A stretch of DNA of 64,000 bases from Bdellovibrionales bacterium (GCA_965116175.1 OZ220490.1:65466-129465); one strand, 5' to 3'. Counted from the stretch's first letter, positions 5,415 to 31,847 are shown. Notes: a model not told the origin generated them from the letters alone. Translations and numbers: made by a program.

Positions 5415-6362
5415 GTGAAGGAATTTTCATTCATTTTTGCAGGGACTTCTGATTTTTCTCTGAAATGTTTAAAACTTTTAATGAAAATAGAGTCTTTATC
5501 TCTCAAAGGTGTTGTGACTCGTCCGGATACTGTAAAAGGCAGAGGTATGAAAACCCAAAGCTCTGATGTTAAATCCTTTGCTCAAGAATTGAATCTGCCC
5601 TGCTGGACTCCCAAAAAGTCAAATGATCCTGAATTTTTAAAGGCTATCATGCAGAAAAATTGTGAGTTTTCTTTTGTTTGCGCCTATGGACAAATTCTGC
5701 CTGTAAATTATCTTGAACTGTTTCCTAAAGGAAGTTTGAATTTACACCTCAGCCTTCTTCCCAAATGGAGGGGAGCGGCTCCTGTTCAAAGAGCTTTAAT
5801 GGCTGGCGATAAAAAGACCGGTATCTGTTTGCAGATTATGACAGAGGCTTTGGATGCCGGTGATATTATTGGACAAAGAAGTTTTGAAATTGAGGAGAAT
5901 GATAATGCTAGTGATATTTTTAATAAAGCTTTAATAAAGACAGAGTCTCTTTTGCGAAAAGAGCTTAAGATTTATCTTAAAGGGAGGCTTAAAGCCCAGC
6001 CTCAGGATCATTCCAAAAAAACTTACGCCAGAAAAATTGATAAAATAGAAGGAAAAATTTTGTGGGAAGAGTCAGCTCTTGATATTCATAATAAGGTGAG
6101 AGCTTTATTTTTAGGGCCTCAGGCTTTTACTTTTTTAAAAGGTCAGAGGGTGAAAGTCTATCAATCAAAAGTGTTGCAGAGGCATTTTTCTGATTATCTC
6201 CCAGGAGAGATTTGTCAGCTTGAAAAGGGACAGTTGACTGTTGCTTGTGGCCGGGGAGGCCTGGTATTGTTGGAGTTACAAAGAGAGGGGAAAAAAAGAC
6301 AAAAAATTAAAGATTTTTTAAGAGGGGCAGATTTACATTTAAAAGATTATTTTGGAAAGTGA
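5415..6362 (+). CDS. fmt: Methionyl-tRNA formyltransferase
   Basis: NLHLSLLPKWRGAAPVQRAL is the formyltransferase signature. GTG start with AGGAG 6 nt upstream. The gene sits directly after def, the classic def-fmt pair. Confidence 0.92.
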   Translation: MKEFSFIFAGTSDFSLKCLKLLMKIESLSLKGVVTRPDTVKGRGMKTQSSDVKSFAQELNLPCWTPKKSNDPEFLKAIMQKNCEFSFVCAYGQILPVNYLELFPKGSLNLHLSLLPKWRGAAPVQRALMAGDKKTGICLQIMTEALDAGDIIGQRSFEIEENDNASDIFNKALIKTESLLRKELKIYLKGRLKAQPQDHSKKTYARKIDKIEGKILWEESALDIHNKVRALFLGPQAFTFLKGQRVKVYQSKVLQRHFSDYLPGEICQLEKGQLTVACGRGGLVLLELQREGKKRQKIKDFLRGADLHLKDYFGK

Positions 6363-6570
6363 CATTTTATTTCAGATTTACTAAAGCTTGTCTCATAAGT
6401 ATAAGCATCATTTCAAAATTGGCTTTGAAGTCAGTTTAAGACTTTGTTTTCGTAATACTGATGAGGCATTTATGAGACAGTCTTTAACTAGAGAGATTTC
6501 ATCATAACAGAAATACAAAAGCTAAAATTTTTAAACAGAAAAGGGTATTTATCAATAAAGGTTAAAGAGA

Positions 6571-7221
6571 ATGGCTGTTTTAATTGCGCCCAGCTTACTT
6601 TCTAGTGATTTTTCCAAATTGGGGGAAGAGGTCAAAGCTTTGGAAAAAGCCGGGGCTGATTGGCTTCACTTTGATATTATGGACTCTCATTTTGTTTCCG
6701 ATCTTACTTTTGGGCCAGCTATTGTTCAGTCTTTGCGCCCCTTGAGTCCATTGTTTTTTGATACTCATCTTATGGTTTCTCACCCTGAAAGGTTTATAGA
6801 ACCTCTTGCCAGAGCTGGGTCCGACTGTATTAGCTTTCACTTTGAGGCTGTTTCCAATCCTCGGCCGCTATTAAAAAAAATTCAAAAACTTAATATTAAA
6901 GCTGGTCTTTCTATTAAGCCAGAAACCTCTGTGGAGGAGATTTTTTCTTTTTTGGAAAACCTGGATTTAATCTTGATTATGACAGTAGAGCCAGGAAAAG
7001 GCGGTCAAGCTTTTTTAAAAGATCAAGCGCAAAAGGTGGAACTTTTAAAACAGAAAATTTTCTCTTTTAAAAAACCCCCTCTTATTGCCGTTGATGGTGG
7101 AATCAATCCAGAAACAGCACAATTAGTTCAGAAAGCTGATGTTTTAATTTCTGGAAATTATATTTTTAAAAGTGATTCTTATTCTTCCAGTATCGCTAAG
7201 CTTAAAAATGCTCACTCATAA
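6571..7221 (+). CDS. rpe: Ribulose-phosphate 3-epimerase
   Basis: Contains IAPSLLSSDF, HFDIMDSHFV, DTHLMV, MTVEPGKGGQAF and VDGGIN. Confidence 0.92.
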   Translation: MAVLIAPSLLSSDFSKLGEEVKALEKAGADWLHFDIMDSHFVSDLTFGPAIVQSLRPLSPLFFDTHLMVSHPERFIEPLARAGSDCISFHFEAVSNPRPLLKKIQKLNIKAGLSIKPETSVEEIFSFLENLDLILIMTVEPGKGGQAFLKDQAQKVELLKQKIFSFKKPPLIAVDGGINPETAQLVQKADVLISGNYIFKSDSYSSSIAKLKNAHS

Positions 7222-21040: not shown

Positions 21041-21116
21041 TCAGGTGTAGCTCAGCTGGTAGAGCAAGTGGCTGTTAACCACTGGGTCGGGGGTTCGAGT
21101 CCCTCCACCTGAGCCA
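21041..21116 (+). tRNA. tRNA-Asn (anticodon GTT), CCA encoded
   Basis: Hand-folded cloverleaf: acceptor tcaggtg/cacctga, D stem gctc/gagc, anticodon stem agtgg/ccact, loop ctGTTaa, T loop ttcgagt. Confidence 0.93.
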
Positions 21117-21337: not shown

Positions 21338-21805
21338 ATGTCTGAAATACATATAAAAATAGACGGTCAGGAAAAGATATGGCCCGAGGCTGTTATAACT
21401 CCTAAAGATATTTTAGAGTTTGAGAAAAAACAGGAGCCTTATGATGCCTATGTTATTTTTAAAATTCAAGGAGATAAAAAGCAGGAAGTATGGAATGGAA
21501 CGGCAAAGGATGATTTGCATAAAAATATAGAAATTAAAAATGATGATGTATTTTATATTGAACATAAGCCAAAAGATTTAAAAATATATTATACTGTCAA
21601 TGGGGAAACACAAGAAATTTTAGCGTCAGATAACAAACTGACGGTTGTCCAAATACTTGAGAAAGCAAAATTTGTCCCTGTGGAAAAATTTAAACTGTTT
21701 AATGCTAAAACAAAAACAGATTATACAAACCCCAGTCAAGAAATAATTGTTCAAAATGGAGATGAGTTTTTAGCTCTATCTTCAGGGCCGACTCCTGTTG
21801 CATAA
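21338..21805 (+). CDS. Ubiquitin-like protein with two tandem beta-grasp (multiubiquitin-type) domains
   Basis: Two ~75-aa halves share the same pattern: IHIKIDGQEKIW..ITPKDILEF...NDDVFYI, and IYYTVNGETQEI...LTVVQILEKAKF...NGDEFLALSSG. It is the first gene of the E2/E1-JAB operon. Confidence 0.7.
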   Translation: MSEIHIKIDGQEKIWPEAVITPKDILEFEKKQEPYDAYVIFKIQGDKKQEVWNGTAKDDLHKNIEIKNDDVFYIEHKPKDLKIYYTVNGETQEILASDNKLTVVQILEKAKFVPVEKFKLFNAKTKTDYTNPSQEIIVQNGDEFLALSSGPTPVA

Positions 21806-22232
21806 TTCAGTGGAAGATTTAACGAATCAAATTCAAAAGGAAATAAAAAAGATTCTCTCTTGTGAATTACATCAGATACAAGAGATGAAAAATTGGAACT
21901 CATCTTTAAATAGAGATGGTTACCTATGCATATTTAAGTATGTGATTCCATGTGGTTCTCTAGAGAATAAAAAAATCACGATTGGTGTAGAACTTCCGCT
22001 AAATGATTATCCAAGATTACCGCCTCATTTTATACATTTAAAACAAGAGGAGTTTAGTGAAGAGAAAAGACAAAAAATGGATAAGATACATGAAGAGTAT
22101 GAAAATAATGGAGAAACTTGGCTGACGCTTAGTCGTCCTCCTCAAGATATATGGGATGATTTGGATAATTCAAAAAAAAATTTGCATACCTTTTTTGAAT
22201 CACATTTAAGAAGAGTTTGGAAGAATTTATGA
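21798..22232 (+). CDS. E2/UBC-fold-like protein (prokaryotic E2 family) lacking a Cys at the expected active-site position
   Basis: DYPRLPPHFIHL resembles the E2 YPxxPPxxxF block. HEEYENNGETWLTLSRPP occupies the position of HPN...G.IC. TTG start at 21798 (alternative GTG at 21810) overlaps the Ubl gene stop. The E2 stop overlaps the next start as ATGA. Confidence 0.6.
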   Translation: MHNSVEDLTNQIQKEIKKILSCELHQIQEMKNWNSSLNRDGYLCIFKYVIPCGSLENKKITIGVELPLNDYPRLPPHFIHLKQEEFSEEKRQKMDKIHEEYENNGETWLTLSRPPQDIWDDLDNSKKNLHTFFESHLRRVWKNL

Positions 22233-23662
22233 AATATGAAGTCACTTTAACCGAAAAAGCTCATAGTATCGCCTGCAACCATTTATTATCTCATTTTAAG
22301 CAAAATAAACTTCAAGAAGAACTGTGTTTTGCGCTTTGGTATCCTTGTAGCGGCAAGAGCAAGACAACAGCTCTAATCTCTGAGATTATTCTTCCTGAAG
22401 GAAATGAACGGAAGCTTCATGGCAATACAAGTTTTCTACCGCAGTTTTTAGCTCGTTCATTACGAATAGCTATAAAAAAGAAAGCGGGGCTTGCTTTTAT
22501 GCACAGTCATCCGACAAAGGGATGGCAGGATATGAGTGGCCCGGATATTATTGCAGAAAAAGATCGCATAGCATCACCTGCTAACAGTACAAATATGCCT
22601 TTGATTGGTTTAACAGTGGGCATAGATGAAAGTTGGAGCGCCAGATTCTGGATAAAAGAGAAGAACAGAAGATTTAAACGATTTTGGTGTGATAAAGTAA
22701 AAGTGATTGGAAATTGTTTAAAAATCACATTTAATGAGCAGGCGTATAATACATTTCAAAATAAAAATATTTTGCGGAGGACTATTGAAACCTGGGGATC
22801 AGATGAGCAGTTAAAAATCAGCAGAATGACAGTGGGGGTTGTAGGTATTGGCAGTGTAGGTTCAATGGTTAGTGAGAATTTGGCGAGAATAGGAATCGGA
22901 AATATTGTTTTAATAGATCACGATAAAATTGAAGAGCATAATTTAGACAGATTGCTTTACGCTACCAAAAAAGATATCGGAAAGTTTAAGTCTGAGTTCT
23001 TTAAAACTAAGATACTTAAGCATTCTGTGAATGAAAATGTGAAAGTAAACTCCCTAATACAACCTATACAATCACAGTCTGCGTTCAGATTGGCTTTGGA
23101 TTGTGATATTATTTTCAGTTGTGTAGATAAACCTTTGGCGAGAGATATTTTAAATCATATAGCTTATGCTCATTTGATACCTGTTATTGATGGAGGCATT
23201 GCGGTGAATAAAAGATACGACAAGTTTTCTGATGCTCGCTGGAGTTCTCATATTATATCCTATGGGCGCAAATGTATGTTATGTAGAAAGCAATATACAA
23301 CTTCAGATGTTTCTATGGAACTTGATGGTTCTCTTGAAGACCCCTCTTATATTGAAAGCTTACATTCAAGCCGGGGGTTTGGAAATGAGAATGTTTTCCC
23401 TTTCAGTCAAAATTTGTCCAGTATAGAGGTGTTAATGATGATACGCTTTTTACTATTTAAGGACTGGTGGCCAAAATTAAATAGTTTGGAATATAATTTT
23501 TTATCAGGGCAAATGAATATAGATGAATCTTCTTGCAATAAAGGATGTTATTTTTTAAGTATTATTGGAAAAGGGGATACAAATCGTATTAAACTATTAC
23601 AAGAAGATGTAAAATTTGAGAAAAGAAATTTATTAAATCTTATTCTTAAATTATGGAGGTAA
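22229..23662 (+). CDS. JAB/JAMM metallopeptidase - E1 (ThiF/MoeB-type adenylyltransferase) fusion protein
   Basis: The N-terminal part has QEELCFAL and HSHPTKGWQDMSGPD, a JAMM E...HxH...SxxD motif with 8 residues rather than the canonical 7 between the second His and the Ser. The C-terminal part has the Rossmann motif GVVGIGSVGSMVSENLARIGIGNIVLIDHDKIEEHNLDRL plus Cys pairs (CMLC, CNKGC). The ATG at 22229 overlaps the E2 stop (ATGA). Confidence 0.85.
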   Translation: MKYEVTLTEKAHSIACNHLLSHFKQNKLQEELCFALWYPCSGKSKTTALISEIILPEGNERKLHGNTSFLPQFLARSLRIAIKKKAGLAFMHSHPTKGWQDMSGPDIIAEKDRIASPANSTNMPLIGLTVGIDESWSARFWIKEKNRRFKRFWCDKVKVIGNCLKITFNEQAYNTFQNKNILRRTIETWGSDEQLKISRMTVGVVGIGSVGSMVSENLARIGIGNIVLIDHDKIEEHNLDRLLYATKKDIGKFKSEFFKTKILKHSVNENVKVNSLIQPIQSQSAFRLALDCDIIFSCVDKPLARDILNHIAYAHLIPVIDGGIAVNKRYDKFSDARWSSHIISYGRKCMLCRKQYTTSDVSMELDGSLEDPSYIESLHSSRGFGNENVFPFSQNLSSIEVLMMIRFLLFKDWWPKLNSLEYNFLSGQMNIDESSCNKGCYFLSIIGKGDTNRIKLLQEDVKFEKRNLLNLILKLWR

Positions 23663-25657: not shown

Positions 25658-26339
25658 TTACCTCTTCCTTTTCACAAAAGAAATAAGGGAATTACTTGGA
25701 AATTTTTGGAAATGCACTTCATAACTGAGTTTGTTTGTGCTCCCTTTTACTCCCACACCTGCCAAGCGGTTATAAATATCTGTTGTGGCTATCTTTCTAT
25801 GTCCTACAATAGACATCACAACATTTAAGGCCGCTCCTTTGGCTAACTGTTGGTAATATAAGAGCTCTCTCAAGTCATGGAATCTCAGTTCAGGGATATT
25901 TATCCCTTTACAAAAATCCCTCAGAAACCTTGATTGCTTTCCTTGTTTCTATTCTCCCACTCTTGGAAAAGTAAGTTTTCCCAGACAAATACTTTTTCTT
26001 GTTTGGCTTCATAAAGAGTTTCTTTATAACCGCCTTTAGCAATATACCACTCTAAAAGGGGTCTTAATTCCAGCTATAGAACAACACGATTAAGACTGGT
26101 CTTTGTTTCATTAGATGTAAATTGTTTTTTTACATAGATAGTCCCTGCTGATAAATCCACATCAGAAACTCTAAGAGCATATATCTCTCCATTCCGGCCA
26201 CTGCCCAATGAGGATAAAACCTGTGGTTGCAAATATGAGCTTCTTTTAAAAGCTTATCCGCTTCCTCAGAAGTTAAAATCTTTTGTTCAGGTGAGGGAAG
26301 TTTGATTTTAATCTTTTTTCCGGAGTTTTTGTTGATCAC
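25658..26339 (-). pseudogene. Tyrosine recombinase (phage-type integrase) remnant, frameshifted and N-terminally truncated
   Basis: The fragments give GRNGEIYALRVSDVDLSAGTIYVKKQF (catalytic-domain R box, in a different frame from the 26130..26339 ORF) and VVMSIVGHRKIATTDIYNRL (the HxxxxxTTxxY C-terminal box with the catalytic Tyr). Stops and frameshifts lie between them. Confidence 0.8.
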
Positions 26340-26413
26340 TTTCCCTCAAGCCCTCAACAAAGGGTGAAGGGCTATTCAAGAGGGCGGATTTTTATATTTT
26401 CTTTGGTTAGCTT

Positions 26414-26692
26414 TTATAAACTTGGACTGATTTCTTCTTCTTGGGCAGGGCGAGCTTCTTTTAAAGAAAGATTTTTGGCAAACAAGCCTCTGGCTGTTCT
26501 GACAACTAAGACTTCTACAATATCCCCTTTATTAAGCTTTTCATAAGAAGTATTGGTAAATTCTGTTACAGTGGAAAAGTATACATCTTGTTTATTTTGT
26601 TTATCCCAAATAGCACCAAAACCAATATCCGGCATAATCCGACGGATGGCTCCTTTAGCTGTTCCTTTTACCTCTAACACTTTCTCATACAT
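26414..26692 (-). CDS. Cold-shock-domain (CSD/OB-fold)-like small nucleic-acid-binding protein
   Basis: GAIRRIMPDIGFGAIWD...QDVYFS...LNKGDIVEVLVV..ARGLFAKNL parallels the CspA pattern G.VKWF...GFGFI...DVFVH...L.eGq.V.f....kG..A.nv. Confidence 0.55.
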   Translation of the reverse strand: MYEKVLEVKGTAKGAIRRIMPDIGFGAIWDKQNKQDVYFSTVTEFTNTSYEKLNKGDIVEVLVVRTARGLFAKNLSLKEARPAQEEEISPSL

Positions 26693-26774
26693 CTGATTTA
26701 CTCCTTTTAGCTGAAGTCTTATTTTTTAATCATAAAACCATTACACTATAAAGCAAAAAGTATTTCAGATCAGT

Positions 26775-29639
26775 TTATAAAGAAATACAATCCTTTGTAA
26801 CCAACTCTTTTAAATTTTTGACAACCTGTGGCAATCCAGGGCCTGTGATCTTTTCGCCTTTAGATTCTTTTTCAGATAAATCTAAATTTAGTTGCAAAAG
26901 AAAATCCAGTTCATCCTGATTTGTTTTGAAGCCATAAGCAGAATAAACAGCCTCATCTAAAGCTTTATGATATTTTAGCAATTCATGATCCCCAGGTAAT
27001 TCTATAGAACGATATAAATCACGATAGCTTATCCCTTCTTTTTTTAAAATTTTTGCTCTTACTTCTCTTAAATTTCTAGCTTTTTTAGCAACTGTCTTTA
27101 TCTTGGCTAATGTAGGTTTCTGTGGCCAAGGGAAAGTGTCATATACTGTGTTAGTTGTGTAGCGAAAAGTCTCAGCTAAAGTTGAACACTTATGAGTGAA
27201 CCAAATCCAATGCATACTGGATTGTAAAATTCCAAAAGAATAATCGTCATCAAAAGTAAAAGCGACCAAAGCTGCATTTGGGTTTATATCTGAATGGACA
27301 AACTCAAAGATACCTCTTTGTGTAACTTGTCCACAAACACAGTATCTTTTTATTTTTCTAATTTTCTTCATTAAATCTGTTCTAGGATAAGATAACTGCC
27401 ACCATGTTTTTAAAAAATTCTGATGATGTCTATTCACCCTGGCTTTAGGGTTTGTCTTTAGTAGCTTTTTGTTTCGAGCTTTTTCCTTCTCTGCTTCCTC
27501 TCTCCTTTTTGGTAAAACTGTTTTTTCTATGACTTTATATAATCCTTTATATTTTTGAGCCTGTATTAGAGTTTTATCTGAAAAATCTATAACATATCTT
27601 TGAGGCAAGGGAGTTTTCCCAGCTATAAAATTATGAGCTGTTAAAAAAGGCTTTAAAACATCTTTAAAATTTATGTTTTTTGAAATATTTTTTTCAGCTT
27701 CGTTTTTTGGAAGAAGAAAAGAAGCATGTCCATGTGTTTGACCTTGAGAAGCCGCCTTAGATTTTCTATTAACATTTAATACTTTAGCTTGAGAAACATC
27801 TACATCAATAGACAAAGCAGAATTAATCTCTTTTAGCTCGTTAACATGTAATTCTTGTTCATAACCATCAAGATATATACTTTTTCCTATGAACAGCCTC
27901 TTTTTTTTATTTTTATATAATTTATCCTTTGTCCAATTTACTATAGACACATAAACAGCGGCTTCACCAGACCATTTTTGGCTAGACACAGCTTCTGTAA
28001 TGATGCCTCCGTTTTGAACAATATGATCCAAAGAGCCTTCTCTGGAATAGTTTTGCCGAATAGTGTTTGTTCCAACCAATCCAGCTATACCTTTTTTTGA
28101 AAGATGGTCATGGGCTTTTTTAAACCAATAAACACAATAATCCGCTCTTCCTGGCACAGTGGGATAAGCTTCACGAATTTTGTTTATATAGCTTACTCCC
28201 ATTTCTTGTTGGATTTTGTTCTTGGATTGATACGGTGGATTACCAATAATAGCATCCACTTTAGGCCACACAGCAAACAAAGCATCTTCAGCCAAAAAGT
28301 TATTATCCAAGTCATCAAACGGCAAAGAGGAGTCTTGTATATTAAACTCATCAGCTAAAATTTTTCGACCAATGGATAAAGCTACTTTTGCTAATTCCAA
28401 CCCAAATTTGTTTGTATCAATACCATAAAAGTTTTTTGGGGAAACAAGCAAGCCAAGTTCTGAGGGGCGAATTTGTCCTCCTTCTCCTAAATCTTCTAAA
28501 ATTTCCATTTCAAGTTTTCTTAACTCCCTAAAGGCGATATAAAGAAAATTTCCACTACCACAAGCCGGATCTAAAACTTTAAATTCTTGTATTTCTTTTA
28601 ATAGTTTTCTTTTGTTTCTTTTTGTTTTTGCCTTGTTTATTTTTTCTTTAAATGGTTGGACAATAGAGGGCCCAACAATTTTATATATGTCTAATTCATG
28701 AGTATAATGGATGCCGTGACCGTGTCTTCTTTTTGGATCCATACTGCCTTCAAAAAGAGAACCAAATATAGATGGTCTTACTTTTTCCCAATTTTGCTTT
28801 GAGGCATCATGTAGCAGTTCCACTTCTTTATAAGATAGCTCCACTGCATCAGTTTTCTTAAAAATTCCCCCATTAAAATATTCAATATGTTTATATTTTC
28901 TTGGTTTATCAAACTTATTTTTTATTGCCATTGCCTTAAATAAGAGAGACAGTTCTTTTTGAGCTGGAAGATCAATTAAGCATTTTTTTAAAATTTCATG
29001 CAAAGTATATTGAGGTATCAATCCAACATCTTCTGAAAACAGAGCTATAACCAATTGGAGTATAAATCTCTGGGCCTTATCTTTTGATATTCCTCTTTTC
29101 TCCATAGACATATAGATTTCACCAATAGTTTTTGCAACCTGTTCTGTGATAGCTACATTATGATTATCAAATAGAGGCTCTTCCTCTACAGGCAAAAGAA
29201 ACTTTAAAGCGCCCCAACTCATTTGAAGGTCTTTTGTATTCAGCTTATGAACAGGATCGTTTAATTGGTTGTTTAAATCGTATATCCAAAACTCATCAAA
29301 ATTACATAAAACCATATACTTTGGACGACTAGGAACTAGAGTAATCCAGTAATCAAAAGCTTGATCATAATGCTTCTGAAGAGGCATGCCTCTCTTTTTT
29401 AATTCAATAATTACTCTAGGCTTCCAAACAAGATCAGGGAAAATAACCCCTCTGCCTTTTCGTTTTTTGACTGGTAGTTCACAAATGGCTCCCGCCCCTA
29501 GAACTCCTGTATTGCCAAAAGCTTGAAGAAGCCGATCAAAAAATATCTGACCTTCTCCTTTTTCAGAACCTTTACAATTCTTGAACCAGTCTAAAAAAGC
29601 TTTGATTCTCTCTTGATGTTCTTTCTGGTTGATTGTCAT
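26775..29639 (-). CDS. MmeI-family type IIL (IIG) restriction endonuclease / N6-adenine DNA methyltransferase fusion
   Basis: The N-terminal PD-(D/E)XK block FPDLVWKPRVIIELKKRGMPLQKHYDQAFDYW closely parallels MmeI FVDLFWPGILLIEMKSRGKDLDKAYDQALDYF as I recall it. The SAM motif I is VLDPACGSGNFLY and motif IV is IIGNPPYQS. The 954 aa size is typical of the family. Confidence 0.88.
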   Translation of the reverse strand: MTINQKEHQERIKAFLDWFKNCKGSEKGEGQIFFDRLLQAFGNTGVLGAGAICELPVKKRKGRGVIFPDLVWKPRVIIELKKRGMPLQKHYDQAFDYWITLVPSRPKYMVLCNFDEFWIYDLNNQLNDPVHKLNTKDLQMSWGALKFLLPVEEEPLFDNHNVAITEQVAKTIGEIYMSMEKRGISKDKAQRFILQLVIALFSEDVGLIPQYTLHEILKKCLIDLPAQKELSLLFKAMAIKNKFDKPRKYKHIEYFNGGIFKKTDAVELSYKEVELLHDASKQNWEKVRPSIFGSLFEGSMDPKRRHGHGIHYTHELDIYKIVGPSIVQPFKEKINKAKTKRNKRKLLKEIQEFKVLDPACGSGNFLYIAFRELRKLEMEILEDLGEGGQIRPSELGLLVSPKNFYGIDTNKFGLELAKVALSIGRKILADEFNIQDSSLPFDDLDNNFLAEDALFAVWPKVDAIIGNPPYQSKNKIQQEMGVSYINKIREAYPTVPGRADYCVYWFKKAHDHLSKKGIAGLVGTNTIRQNYSREGSLDHIVQNGGIITEAVSSQKWSGEAAVYVSIVNWTKDKLYKNKKKRLFIGKSIYLDGYEQELHVNELKEINSALSIDVDVSQAKVLNVNRKSKAASQGQTHGHASFLLPKNEAEKNISKNINFKDVLKPFLTAHNFIAGKTPLPQRYVIDFSDKTLIQAQKYKGLYKVIEKTVLPKRREEAEKEKARNKKLLKTNPKARVNRHHQNFLKTWWQLSYPRTDLMKKIRKIKRYCVCGQVTQRGIFEFVHSDINPNAALVAFTFDDDYSFGILQSSMHWIWFTHKCSTLAETFRYTTNTVYDTFPWPQKPTLAKIKTVAKKARNLREVRAKILKKEGISYRDLYRSIELPGDHELLKYHKALDEAVYSAYGFKTNQDELDFLLQLNLDLSEKESKGEKITGPGLPQVVKNLKELVTKDCISL

Positions 29640-29865
29640 GATGCATTTAAGTATTTATATTTTTTCCTCTTAAAGCAATAATTTCTAGCTGCGGTTTATA
29701 TCCTTTCAAAAGGCATCTTTCAGAAGTGATTTTGATTCTTTCTACTTTTGTAGACTTTAGTATAGGTAAAAAATTAGCTTCATTAAGAAAAGGTTCAAGA
29801 TACTTTAAGTCGCCTCGCAACATGAAATGTTAAAGCTGTGGAGTTAAAAAAGCGTGATGTTCAAG

Positions 29866-29955
29866 TGGCGGAGAGGGAGGGATTCGAACCCCCGAGACCC
29901 GTGAAGGTCTGCCGGTTTTCAAGACCGGTGCAATCAACCGCTCTGCCACCTCTCC
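29866..29955 (-). tRNA. tRNA-Ser (anticodon TGA), long variable arm, CCA encoded
   Basis: The reverse complement folds as: acceptor ggagagg/cctctcc, anticodon stem ccggt/accgg with loop ctTGAaa, an extra arm, and T loop ttcgaat. Confidence 0.92.
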
Positions 29956-30286: not shown

Positions 30287-30591
30287 GGTAGTCATGCATT
30301 CATTACGGTCGATCCAGTGATGAGGTCTCTCTGGAGGGCAGGTATTTATACAAGAGTCTGTAGCTGTATCCCATTTCGGTTTTTCCGGAGGGCAGACCAC
30401 ACATCTAAATCCATCAGAGAATCCTGGGTCATCATCTAGGGGTAGTCATGCATTCATTACGGTCGATCCAGTGATGAGGTCTCTCTGGAGGGCAGGTATT
30501 TATACAAGAGTCTGTAGCTGTATCCCATTTCGGTTTTTCCGGAGGGCAGACCACACATCTAAATCCATCAGAGAATCCTGGGTCATCATCT
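30287..30591. repeat. Tandem direct duplication, 2 x 151 bp (period 154 bp), covering the 3' end of the 30432..31847 gene
   Basis: ggtagtcatgcattcattacggtcgatcc...cctgggtcatcatct is present at 30287-30437 and again at 30441-30591. Confidence 0.9.
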
Positions 30592-31847
30592 GTCCCGCAA
30601 GAGATATCACACACTCCCCGCCGGTTTTCTGCAGCCTTACTCCGAGCAGTGCCTGGAACACAGCGGTCGAAACACCAGCGGTTTATACATCTTTGATTTG
30701 ATGAACAAGCAGGTGAACATTCAGATTCTGGCGGCGGGGTTTTAGATTCTGGCGGCGGGGTTTTAGATTCTGGCGGCGGGGTTTTAGATTCTGGCGGCGG
30801 GGTTTTAGATTCTGGCGGCTGTTGGTTGTTATTGCCGGAATTATCGCCTCCGCCACCGCTGACTGTGCCGCCAATTAAACCTTGACACAAATCATCCACC
30901 CAATCATCCAGATCCCCCACATCCCCTATCTCATTGCTGTTGCTCCCAGCCGCATCCTCATGGATCCAACCACTCGCATTCCTATTATTTCCTGTCCCCT
31001 GACGGCTATTCACTTTCTCATCTATTATCTCCTCTATATACTCCTCAAAATCATCATGGTTCAACCAATCATCCCTCGCATCATCATCCATCCCTTTTCC
31101 TATCTTACAATACACCGCAAAACAAGCCCTCGTCTCCGTATCACTCTTACAAGCGCTATTCTTGTTATTTATATACTCCTGAAACCAATCCAATATCAGC
31201 TCACTTTCCACAGCCTTCTCTATCAACTTATCCCCATCCAACCTCTTCAAAAACGGTTCAGATATCCCATGATCATTACTGCTATAACTCCCGCTGAACT
31301 TCTTCAATAAAGCCTCTAAACTCTTATGATCATCATCTTCTTTCTCAAATATCTTCGCAATATCCTCATTCTCTATCAACCACATTAAAAACTCCTTCGC
31401 ATCCCTGCTGTTATACTTCTTAATCAAACTATCCAATGATCTTATCGAAACATTCAAATACAAATCAAAAACATCCTTATCCACCCCTGATAAATCCTCC
31501 GCATCCGGGTTCTTTAACAACTCATACAAATCCCATAAGGCCTCCACCTGAGCCACTGTCAACTCTTCACAATCCCCTCGATCCCCACGGCTCCTATACA
31601 TATCCTTACAATACTCATAACAATCATGGCTTTTATTCTTATCCTCACATTTTTCTGTATCCCCTCTTATCGTCCTGGCTGTACGCTTGATCACCTCATC
31701 CCTGTTCTCATCATTGGCCTTCTTAACCTCATATTCATTCTCTGTCCTTTCTACAGCTGGCGGACCAAAACAAGAACCTACATAAACAAGCAGTAAACTT
31801 ATCAGCGCTACTCTTAGGCAGTTCATAAAAAATCCCCTGTCAGTCAT
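30432..31847 (-). CDS. Secreted acidic protein with (KTPPPES)n linker and Cys-rich C-terminal modules
   Basis: It has a signal peptide/lipobox-like N-terminus (LLLVYVGSC), a D/E-rich helical region, GGGDNSGNN, PPESKTP x5, and a C-terminal ~100 aa with 16 Cys. Confidence 0.65.
   Translation of the reverse strand: MTDRGFFMNCLRVALISLLLVYVGSCFGPPAVERTENEYEVKKANDENRDEVIKRTARTIRGDTEKCEDKNKSHDCYEYCKDMYRSRGDRGDCEELTVAQVEALWDLYELLKNPDAEDLSGVDKDVFDLYLNVSIRSLDSLIKKYNSRDAKEFLMWLIENEDIAKIFEKEDDDHKSLEALLKKFSGSYSSNDHGISEPFLKRLDGDKLIEKAVESELILDWFQEYINNKNSACKSDTETRACFAVYCKIGKGMDDDARDDWLNHDDFEEYIEEIIDEKVNSRQGTGNNRNASGWIHEDAAGSNSNEIGDVGDLDDWVDDLCQGLIGGTVSGGGGDNSGNNNQQPPESKTPPPESKTPPPESKTPPPESKTPPPESECSPACSSNQRCINRWCFDRCVPGTARSKAAENRRGVCDISCGTDDDPGFSDGFRCVVCPPEKPKWDTATDSCINTCPPERPHHWIDRNECMTTPR
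30724..30819. repeat. 21-bp tandem repeat, 4 perfect units plus a partial fifth (encodes KTPPPES on the minus strand)
   Basis: gattctggcggcggggtttta recurs at 30724, 30745, 30766 and 30787, with a partial unit at 30808. Confidence 0.9.

Follow-up and report, generated by a model that had tools for sequence, protein, structure and literature searches.

A probable Bub-like, cysteine-free conjugation operon with an appended ATPase/PIN gene pair in a Bdellovibrionales genome

Introduction

Conjugation of ubiquitin-like proteins (Ubls) by a cysteine-free pathway was shown only in 2024, for two types of Bub operon, and neither a phenotype nor a target was found by the authors (Ye et al., bioRxiv 10.1101/2024.11.21.623953). 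In the solved structure of BubB with BubCD, Ser333 occupies the position of the E2 cysteine and is flanked by His335 and Asp299; the BubB substitutions S333A/H335A and the BubCD substitution Y370F each abolish conjugation, and the pathway was concluded to run through tyrosine and serine oxyesters (bioRxiv 10.1101/2024.11.21.623953). All Bub operons are stated to encode BubE, a DUF6527 serine protease, and the catalogue was drawn from DUF6527-containing operons (bioRxiv 10.1101/2024.11.21.623953). Here we describe a five-gene operon in a stretch of 64,000 nucleotides (nt) from a Bdellovibrionales bacterium (GCA_965116175.1, OZ220490.1:65466-129465; hereafter, the window), which encodes a Ubl, an E2-like protein, a fusion of a JAB peptidase to an E1, an ATPase and a small PIN-like protein.

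The original prediction, made from the sequence of the window, held that the E2-like protein has no cysteine where the catalytic one should be, and offered two interpretations, namely, an inactive adaptor of the RWD/UEV type or an E2 working through a serine or threonine oxyester. Both have a precedent in the literature on operons of this class: besides the oxyester pathway of the Bub operons, the E2-like domain of operon row 6e had earlier been called an inactive RWD-like module (Iyer, Burroughs and Aravind 2006, PMC1779556).

Results

The reading frame at 21798-22232 (plus strand) translates, as originally described, into 144 amino acids (aa) from TTG 21798. The E2-like block YPRLPPHF falls at residues 71-78, residues 98-115 (HEEYENNGETWLTLSRPP) contain no cysteine, and the only cysteines, C22, C44 and C52, all lie N-terminal of the block. 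Because the full-length close homologues (n = 18) are 139-142 aa long and all begin with 'ME..', and because the E2 gene of the homologous locus L001 starts 4 nt past the Ubl stop, the real start is most likely GTG 21810, giving a protein of 140 rather than 144 aa; in the window, GTG 21810 follows the TAA stop of the Ubl gene (21803-21805) after a spacer of 4 nt. E2 residues are numbered below in the 140-aa form, that is, four less than in the original prediction (Thr107 and Thr110 become T103 and T106).

By itself, a cysteine-free stretch of 18 residues is meaningless, but the pattern across the family goes far beyond chance. The 18 close homologues share 51-81% identity with the window protein, and their invariant positions include C18, D66, P68-F74 (PRLPPHF), H94, Y97, W104, S108-R-P-P111, I114-W-D116 and H132, whereas C40 and C48 are variable. 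A search of 1.84 billion representative proteins with a profile of this close family yielded 53 relatives, most of them standalone proteins of about 126 aa and several of them Ubl-E2 fusions of 200-286 aa. When 33 diverse members were aligned, only P72, H73, S108 and W115 proved invariant; no cysteine column is conserved among them, and cysteine is missing altogether from 14 of the 74 family proteins. This rules out a cysteine nucleophile for the family, and, as judged from these alignments, no cysteine of the E2-like protein can be catalytic. Ser108 is the sole conserved hydroxyl residue in its region. Thus, of the three nucleophiles originally put forward, only Ser112 (the Ser108 of our numbering) is conserved in the family, whereas Thr107 and Thr110 vary even among close homologues.

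The fold and lineage of the protein are E2-like and lead to the Pfam family Prok-E2_E (PF14462, gathering cutoff 25 bits). This cutoff is exceeded by two relatives that the profile of the close homologues had retrieved (E = 5e-9 and 4e-5), P0049 with 28.5 bits and P0069 with 31.5 bits, and four more (P0067, P0056, P0045 and P0048) have sub-threshold scores for the same family. BubAB of Citrobacter consists of Multi_ubiq and Prok-E2_E in a Pfam scan (E = 8e-26). The window E2 would accordingly be placed as an outlying member of Prok-E2_E, on evidence that is transitive throughout. An AlphaFold2 model of the protein (predicted local distance difference test score, pLDDT, 88.7; predicted template modelling score 0.84) consists of helix alpha1, four beta-strands, a short helix and a beta-hairpin that ends at residue 107, immediately before Ser108, followed by another short helix and a single long C-terminal helix. 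This modelled topology matches a minimal UBC domain in which the two final helices are missing, an arrangement also reported for BubB and Cap2.

Several comparisons put Ser108 at the position of BubB Ser333. In a MAFFT alignment of the family with BubB, the BubB segment 'RWSRH' sits on 'LSRPP', with serine invariant in 19 of 19 rows, and BubB Asp299 falls on the family-invariant His73. Alignment of the 33-member family to BubB with hhalign gave the same register as far as the YP motif, over the N-terminal half of the protein, with a weak score (E = 0.017). The coordinates of the Pfam matches agree, with the family serine at about position 94-95 of the hidden Markov model and Ser333 at about 95-98, and with the His73 equivalents at about 60-64 and Asp299 at about 60-63. 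No match was obtained when the diverse-family profile was aligned by hhalign to a single type II BubBD sequence, and a homologue search with an approximate BubB query sequence gave a single partial match. By homology with this experimentally characterized relative, Ser108 appears to be the best candidate for the nucleophile, and His73 is probably its partner.

The E1 partner is, as originally stated, fused to its own JAB peptidase; its residues are numbered here in the 481-aa frame that begins at the alternative start TTG 22217. Its best solved relative is BubCD of Citrobacter (9ea4/9ea5/9eav, E about 2e-21), the match covering both domains (residues 53 to 336). The JAMM residues H96, H98, S107 and D110 are invariant, as are the adenylation residues GxGxxG, R245 and D304. 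The crossover loop holds no cysteine and a single invariant tyrosine, Y378, which is aligned with Tyr370 of BubCD in an L-INS-i alignment of BubCD with 15 family E1s from Bdellovibrionales, Dehalococcoidia, Acidimicrobiia and unassigned metagenomic contigs. The loop is flanked by an invariant CxxC ... Cx3C set, whereas Citrobacter BubCD has no cysteines there; we take these four cysteines to resemble the structural zinc site of MoeB, ThiF and UBA5.

The Ubl matches Pfam Multi_ubiq below the cutoff (E = 3.7e-4), with two repeats, and resembles the N-terminal portion of the Ubl-E2 fusion encoded by a distant locus, L021; a search of the PDB with the Ubl profile found nothing. Its tail, GPTPVA, is invariant in all nine close orthologues, seven of which stop at the alanine and two of which add one isoleucine. 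Among distant standalone Ubls, the endings are ...APVA, ...APLS and ...PPAV. In the fused relatives, the corresponding junctions (the slash marks the boundary) read ...G-x-TPVA/SPES..., ...TPVA/DSAD... and ...TPVS/DSGA..., and that of L021 reads GKTPVA/ESAA. The tail extends eight residues past the last beta-strand, as does that of Citrobacter BubA, whose last residue is Gly229. From these sequences, the activated C-terminus is probably alanine, sometimes serine, and not glycine, an uncommon ending among Ubl/E1 systems; any residues beyond it would be removed by the JAB domain. The tail and stop codon of the window Ubl lie at 21788-21805, and Ubl genes of other loci at 6542-7000 (L002), 489-947 (L004), 5731-5985 (L008) and 5625-5888 (L015).

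The last two genes of the operon encode an ATPase that PADLOC assigns as NsnB/AriA/GajA-like and a small protein that has no match in Pfam; PADLOC and NCBIfam contain no models for the Ubl, the E2 or this fifth protein. The fifth protein has a PIN-like fold: its AlphaFold2 model (pLDDT 92.8) has VapC PIN toxins as the top Foldseek matches (5x3t_B, E = 8e-4, probability 1.0), and the acidic residues D11, E51, D99, D122 and D128 are invariant in the alignment.

The order Ubl, E2, JAB-E1, ATPase, PIN-like is retained, between unrelated flanks, in 10 of 10 close loci, which come from Bdellovibrionales metagenome-assembled genomes and metagenome contigs; the ATPase is thus present in all of these as well as in the distant fused locus. 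In the window, the JAB-E1 gene is translationally coupled to the E2 gene, its ATG at 22229 overlapping the E2 stop as ATGA, and the first 10 nt of the ATPase gene are shared with the end of the E1 gene. The distant locus, L021 (281-4353 of a marine metagenome scaffold), encodes a fused Ubl-E2 protein, a JAB-E1, and homologues of the ATPase and of the small PIN-like protein in four genes that all overlap or abut, with only 29% (E2) and 46% (JAB-E1) identity to the window proteins. Judging from its gene content, L021 is the same system in a fused form; fused Ubl-E2 proteins were also found among the distant relatives P0029, P0037, P0039 and P0045.

The two parts of the cassette also occur apart. 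The ATPase/PIN pair is found without Ubl, E2 or E1 in two defence islands, L019 (5688-7465) and L020 (5688-7462), with 64-67% identity for the ATPase and 53-56% for the PIN-like protein, and it looks like an unnamed two-gene defence module. Conversely, the Ubl/E2/E1 trio stands alone in the distant relatives L007, L008 and L015-L018, in some of which it is preceded by a helix-turn-helix (HTH) gene. The trio and the pair are therefore separable modules, and this separability is what speaks for their being two independent neighbouring defence systems, an explanation that we nevertheless consider rather unlikely, given the 10-nt overlap between E1 and ATPase, the persistence of the five genes together in all 10 close loci with differing flanks, and the recurrence of the same four functions in overlapping genes of L021, where E2 identity is down to 29%. 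Because L021 keeps all four functions, tightly packed, at such low identity, the association of the trio with the pair is not accidental.

Some neighbourhoods of the related loci were examined further. The L019 and L020 pairs adjoin restriction-modification and other ATPase genes. Just 5' of the trio in L007 (219-1242) lie HTH and Peptidase_M78 genes that resemble CapH+CapP, regulators reported beside 31% of Bub operons, and in L017/L018 (4235-5232) the trio is preceded by an HTH-like gene and an uncharacterized 211-aa gene; a pair of the HTH/Peptidase_M78 type is absent 5' of the window operon. In the nearly identical metagenome contigs L005 and L006 (6858-8104), the JAB-E1 is cut to a 49-aa stub 3' of the fused Ubl-E2 P0029, more E1-like sequence lies in another frame, and a DDE_Tnp_ISAZ013 transposase gene is situated beyond, so that this system is apparently disrupted.

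No gene for BubE was recognized. Pfam DUF6527 had no match on the operon or neighbouring open reading frames (ORFs), tblastn with two BubE sequences gave no credible match, either to the window or to L001-L008, and no DUF6527 gene is called in the close loci or the three-gene relatives examined. The only weak tblastn matches, at 30311-30590, were produced by an unrelated predicted secreted protein and were rejected as spurious. This protein (471 aa; 30432-31847, minus strand) has five tandem PPESKTP repeats, a Cys-rich C-terminus and no Pfam match. Table S1 of Ye et al. holds no entry for Bdellovibrio, Dehalococcoidia or Acidimicrobiia, and no Bub variant linked to an ATPase/PIN module turned up in our literature search, which did not cover subscription journals.

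The five plus-strand genes (Table 1) are tightly packed, with some overlaps, between a tRNA-Asn gene and a degraded integrase. The rest of the island (25658-29955) carries, all on the minus strand, integrase remnants spread over several short ORFs (25658-26339), an ORF for a cold-shock-domain-like protein of 92 aa (26414-26692) and a gene for an MmeI-family restriction-modification enzyme of 954 aa (26775-29639), and is closed by a tRNA-Ser gene (29866-29955, minus). A direct repeat of tRNA sequence resembling an attachment site was sought for the island, and none was found. A promoter/terminator scan returned fewer sites than shuffled sequences did.

Table 1. Coordinates in the window of the operon, its left boundary and the residues discussed in the text
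Feature	Position	Strand	Basis or remark
tRNA-Asn (GTT)	21041..21116	+	ARAGORN; directly 5' of operon, left edge of tRNA-flanked island
Ubl, 155 aa, two beta-grasp (Multi_ubiq-like) repeats	21338..21805	+	Weak Pfam Multi_ubiq match, orthologue alignment
E2-like protein, 140 aa, predicted diverged Prok-E2_E/BubB-like UBC fold without catalytic Cys	21810..22232	+	
Pro-Pro-His codons (P71, P72, H73)	22020..22028	+	P72 and H73 family-invariant
Ser108 AGT codon, proposed oxyester nucleophile in invariant S-R-P-P motif	22131..22133	+	Alignments
JAB/JAMM peptidase-E1 (ThiF) fusion, 477 aa	22229..23662	+	Pfam ThiF, E = 2.9e-35
JAMM metal-site motif H96-S-H98 ... S107 ... D110	22502..22546	+	Invariant in alignment
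E1 C353-x-x-C356	23273..23284	+	Pairs with C440-x3-C444 (23534-23548)
E1 Tyr378 TAT codon (Tyr374 in 477-aa form)	23348..23350	+	L-INS-i alignment, codon check
ABC-type ATPase (AAA_15/AAA_21), 428 aa	23653..24939	+	Pfam AAA_15, E = 1.3e-21
PIN-like (VapC-fold) small protein, 155 aa	24994..25461	+	AlphaFold2 model, Foldseek, alignments

Discussion

We consider it likely that the 140-aa protein serves as E2 in a Bub-like ('operon 6e') cysteine-free conjugation pathway, in which it would carry the Ubl as a serine oxyester. Several results weigh against this assignment. The E2-like protein itself has no match above threshold in Pfam, NCBIfam or PADLOC. A Foldseek search of its model against the PDB gave no match at E <= 0.001, and BubB chains are absent among the 50 matches listed, which are dominated by kinase N-lobes. 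Identity to BubB is about 13%, an hmmsearch with the family profile scores BubB at -1.9 bits, which is not significant, and PDB searches with the close-family and diverse-family profiles returned nothing relevant, so that the proposed equivalence of Ser108 and Ser333 comes from low-identity alignments together with the transitive link. Furthermore, the catalytic surroundings differ from those tested experimentally in BubB: the residue two positions after the serine is Pro110 here and the invariant His335 in BubB, and the Asp299 column is occupied by His73. Finally, because a cruder first MAFFT alignment placed BubCD Tyr361, not Tyr370, on Tyr378, whereas L-INS-i placed Tyr370 there, the alignment of the E1 loop is suggestive rather than firm.

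Some of the same observations would fit an inactive RWD/UEV-like adaptor that binds the Ubl or the E1, perhaps so as to position targets, while transfer proceeds directly from E1, as adenylate or tyrosine ester, to the target. This is the historical reading of the operon class (Iyer et al. 2006, PMC1779556), and it agrees with RWD being the sole Pfam match of the protein, at a sub-threshold E = 0.02, with the UEV domain of Vps23 being the only sensible full-length Foldseek match (template modelling score 0.50, probability 0.75; UBE2F stands lower in the list), and with the absence of the BubB histidine two residues after the serine. An adaptor, however, would have no need for a strictly invariant serine and histidine at the positions aligned with the BubB active site, and it leaves this invariance unexplained. 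We regard it as improbable, and favour the oxyester alternative because of the link to Prok-E2_E, the alignment of Ser108 with Ser333 and an E1 that retains a tyrosine but no cysteine in its crossover loop. A conventional thioester E2 using C22, C44 or C52 of the 144-aa form is extremely improbable, since C22 (C18 here), although invariant in the 18 close homologues, lies in beta-strand 1 of the model and is not conserved in the wider family, the other two (C40 and C48) differ already between close homologues, 14 of the 74 family members do without cysteine, and the E1 partner lacks a crossover-loop cysteine.

If Ser108 is the nucleophile of a serine-type E2, conjugation could proceed as follows. 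The E1 half of the JAB-E1 protein would adenylate the C-terminus of the two-domain Ubl, the mature end of which is most likely ...GPTPVA. Tyr378 of the crossover loop would then take up the Ubl as a tyrosyl oxyester and hand it to Ser108 of the E2, forming a seryl oxyester, with His73 probably assisting, and from Ser108 the Ubl would pass to a lysine of the target. The JAB half would trim Ubl precursors, be it the extra isoleucine of some orthologues or the fused E2 of the distant relatives, and, because no BubE protease is present, would probably also remove conjugates. The co-translated ABC ATPase and PIN-like nuclease would most likely be an effector/sensor pair regulated by the conjugation module. 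By analogy with Cap2/Cap3 in the type II cyclic-oligonucleotide-based antiphage signalling system (CBASS), we favour the idea that this module regulates or modifies the ATPase/PIN pair. More tentatively, and with less than even confidence, the locus may represent a third Bub-like type, comprising a split or fused Ubl-E2, a JAB-E1, an ATPase and a PIN-like protein without BubE, in which a Tyr378-Ser108-His73 cascade would conjugate an Ala-ended Ubl to, or for the benefit of, the effector pair; the conjugation module would then be an accessory that regulates a nuclease-based defence.

A mechanism of this kind has thus been described before, and the locus is an uncatalogued variant, which has other residues around the active site, lacks BubE, and combines a Ubl ending in alanine with an ATPase/PIN module. 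It belongs to a clade missed by the DUF6527-based catalogue, in which the putative Ser-type E2 has the Ser-Arg-Pro-Pro motif and the histidine of the PPH motif as active-site neighbours, is paired with a modifier ending in alanine and is tied to a recognizable ATPase/PIN module. An E2 of this kind would add currently unannotated proteins to the known sequence range of oxyester E2s. If the link to the pair is functional, nuclease activity or growth arrest would offer a readout for the role of the chemistry, and the pair would offer a candidate substrate; if true, this would be the first effector-linked handle on the purpose of Bub pathways.

Comparison with known systems

The type I Bub operon, for which we used BubAB, BubCD and BubE of Citrobacter sp. 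RHBSTW-00271 as reference (PDB 9ea4, 9ea5, 9ea8, 9eae, 9eav), shares with the window locus a Ubl of beta-grasp domains (one to three in type I, two here), an E2 of apparent Prok-E2_E lineage with an invariant serine and no catalytic cysteine, a JAB-E1 fusion with a cysteine-free crossover loop and an invariant tyrosine, and residence in a tRNA-associated island with other defence genes. The differences are equally specific. Ubl and E2 are separate genes here but fused, and cleaved by JAB, in BubAB; the BubE/DUF6527 gene is missing; proline replaces the histidine two residues after the serine, and His73 replaces Asp299; the Ubl ends in alanine instead of glycine; the E1 has a zinc-site-like four-cysteine motif that is absent from BubCD; ABC ATPase and PIN-like genes are appended; and the window E2 family profile does not detect BubB directly. 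Operon class 6e (PMC1779556) has the same combination of a PolyUbl, a Cys-less E2/RWD-like protein and a JAB-E1 fusion, and differs in that it includes a metal-binding protein 'Y' (now BubE), of which no counterpart is present in the window operon.

Two further systems resemble the locus in part. Eukaryotic UEV (Tsg101/Vps23, Mms2) and RWD proteins likewise have a UBC-like fold without the catalytic cysteine and a YPxxxP-type turn, but they have no conserved substitute nucleophile and work beside a separate active E2, whereas the present operon encodes no E2 other than the 140-aa protein, with its invariant serine and histidine. In type II CBASS, Cap2 (E2-E1) and Cap3 (JAB) form an E1/E2/JAB regulator added to a sensor-effector pair, the arrangement that we propose here; Cap2, however, uses cysteines, and the protein that it conjugates is the CD-NTase, with no separate Ubl; its E2 belongs to another family.

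In the type II Bub operon (BubA, BubBD and BubE of E. coli ZDHYS365), a single protein joins E2 and E1 (Pfam DUF6791), JAB is usually absent and BubE is present. The likeness lies around the catalytic serine, putative here: both E2s have a Ser-x-basic-Pro-Pro arrangement (FSNKPP there, LSRPP here) and an invariant histidine, and the oxyester chemistry with a crossover-loop tyrosine that type II employs is predicted from sequence for the window. In this respect, the S-R-P-P motif described here is closer to the S-N-K-P-P of type II BubBD than the type I motif is.

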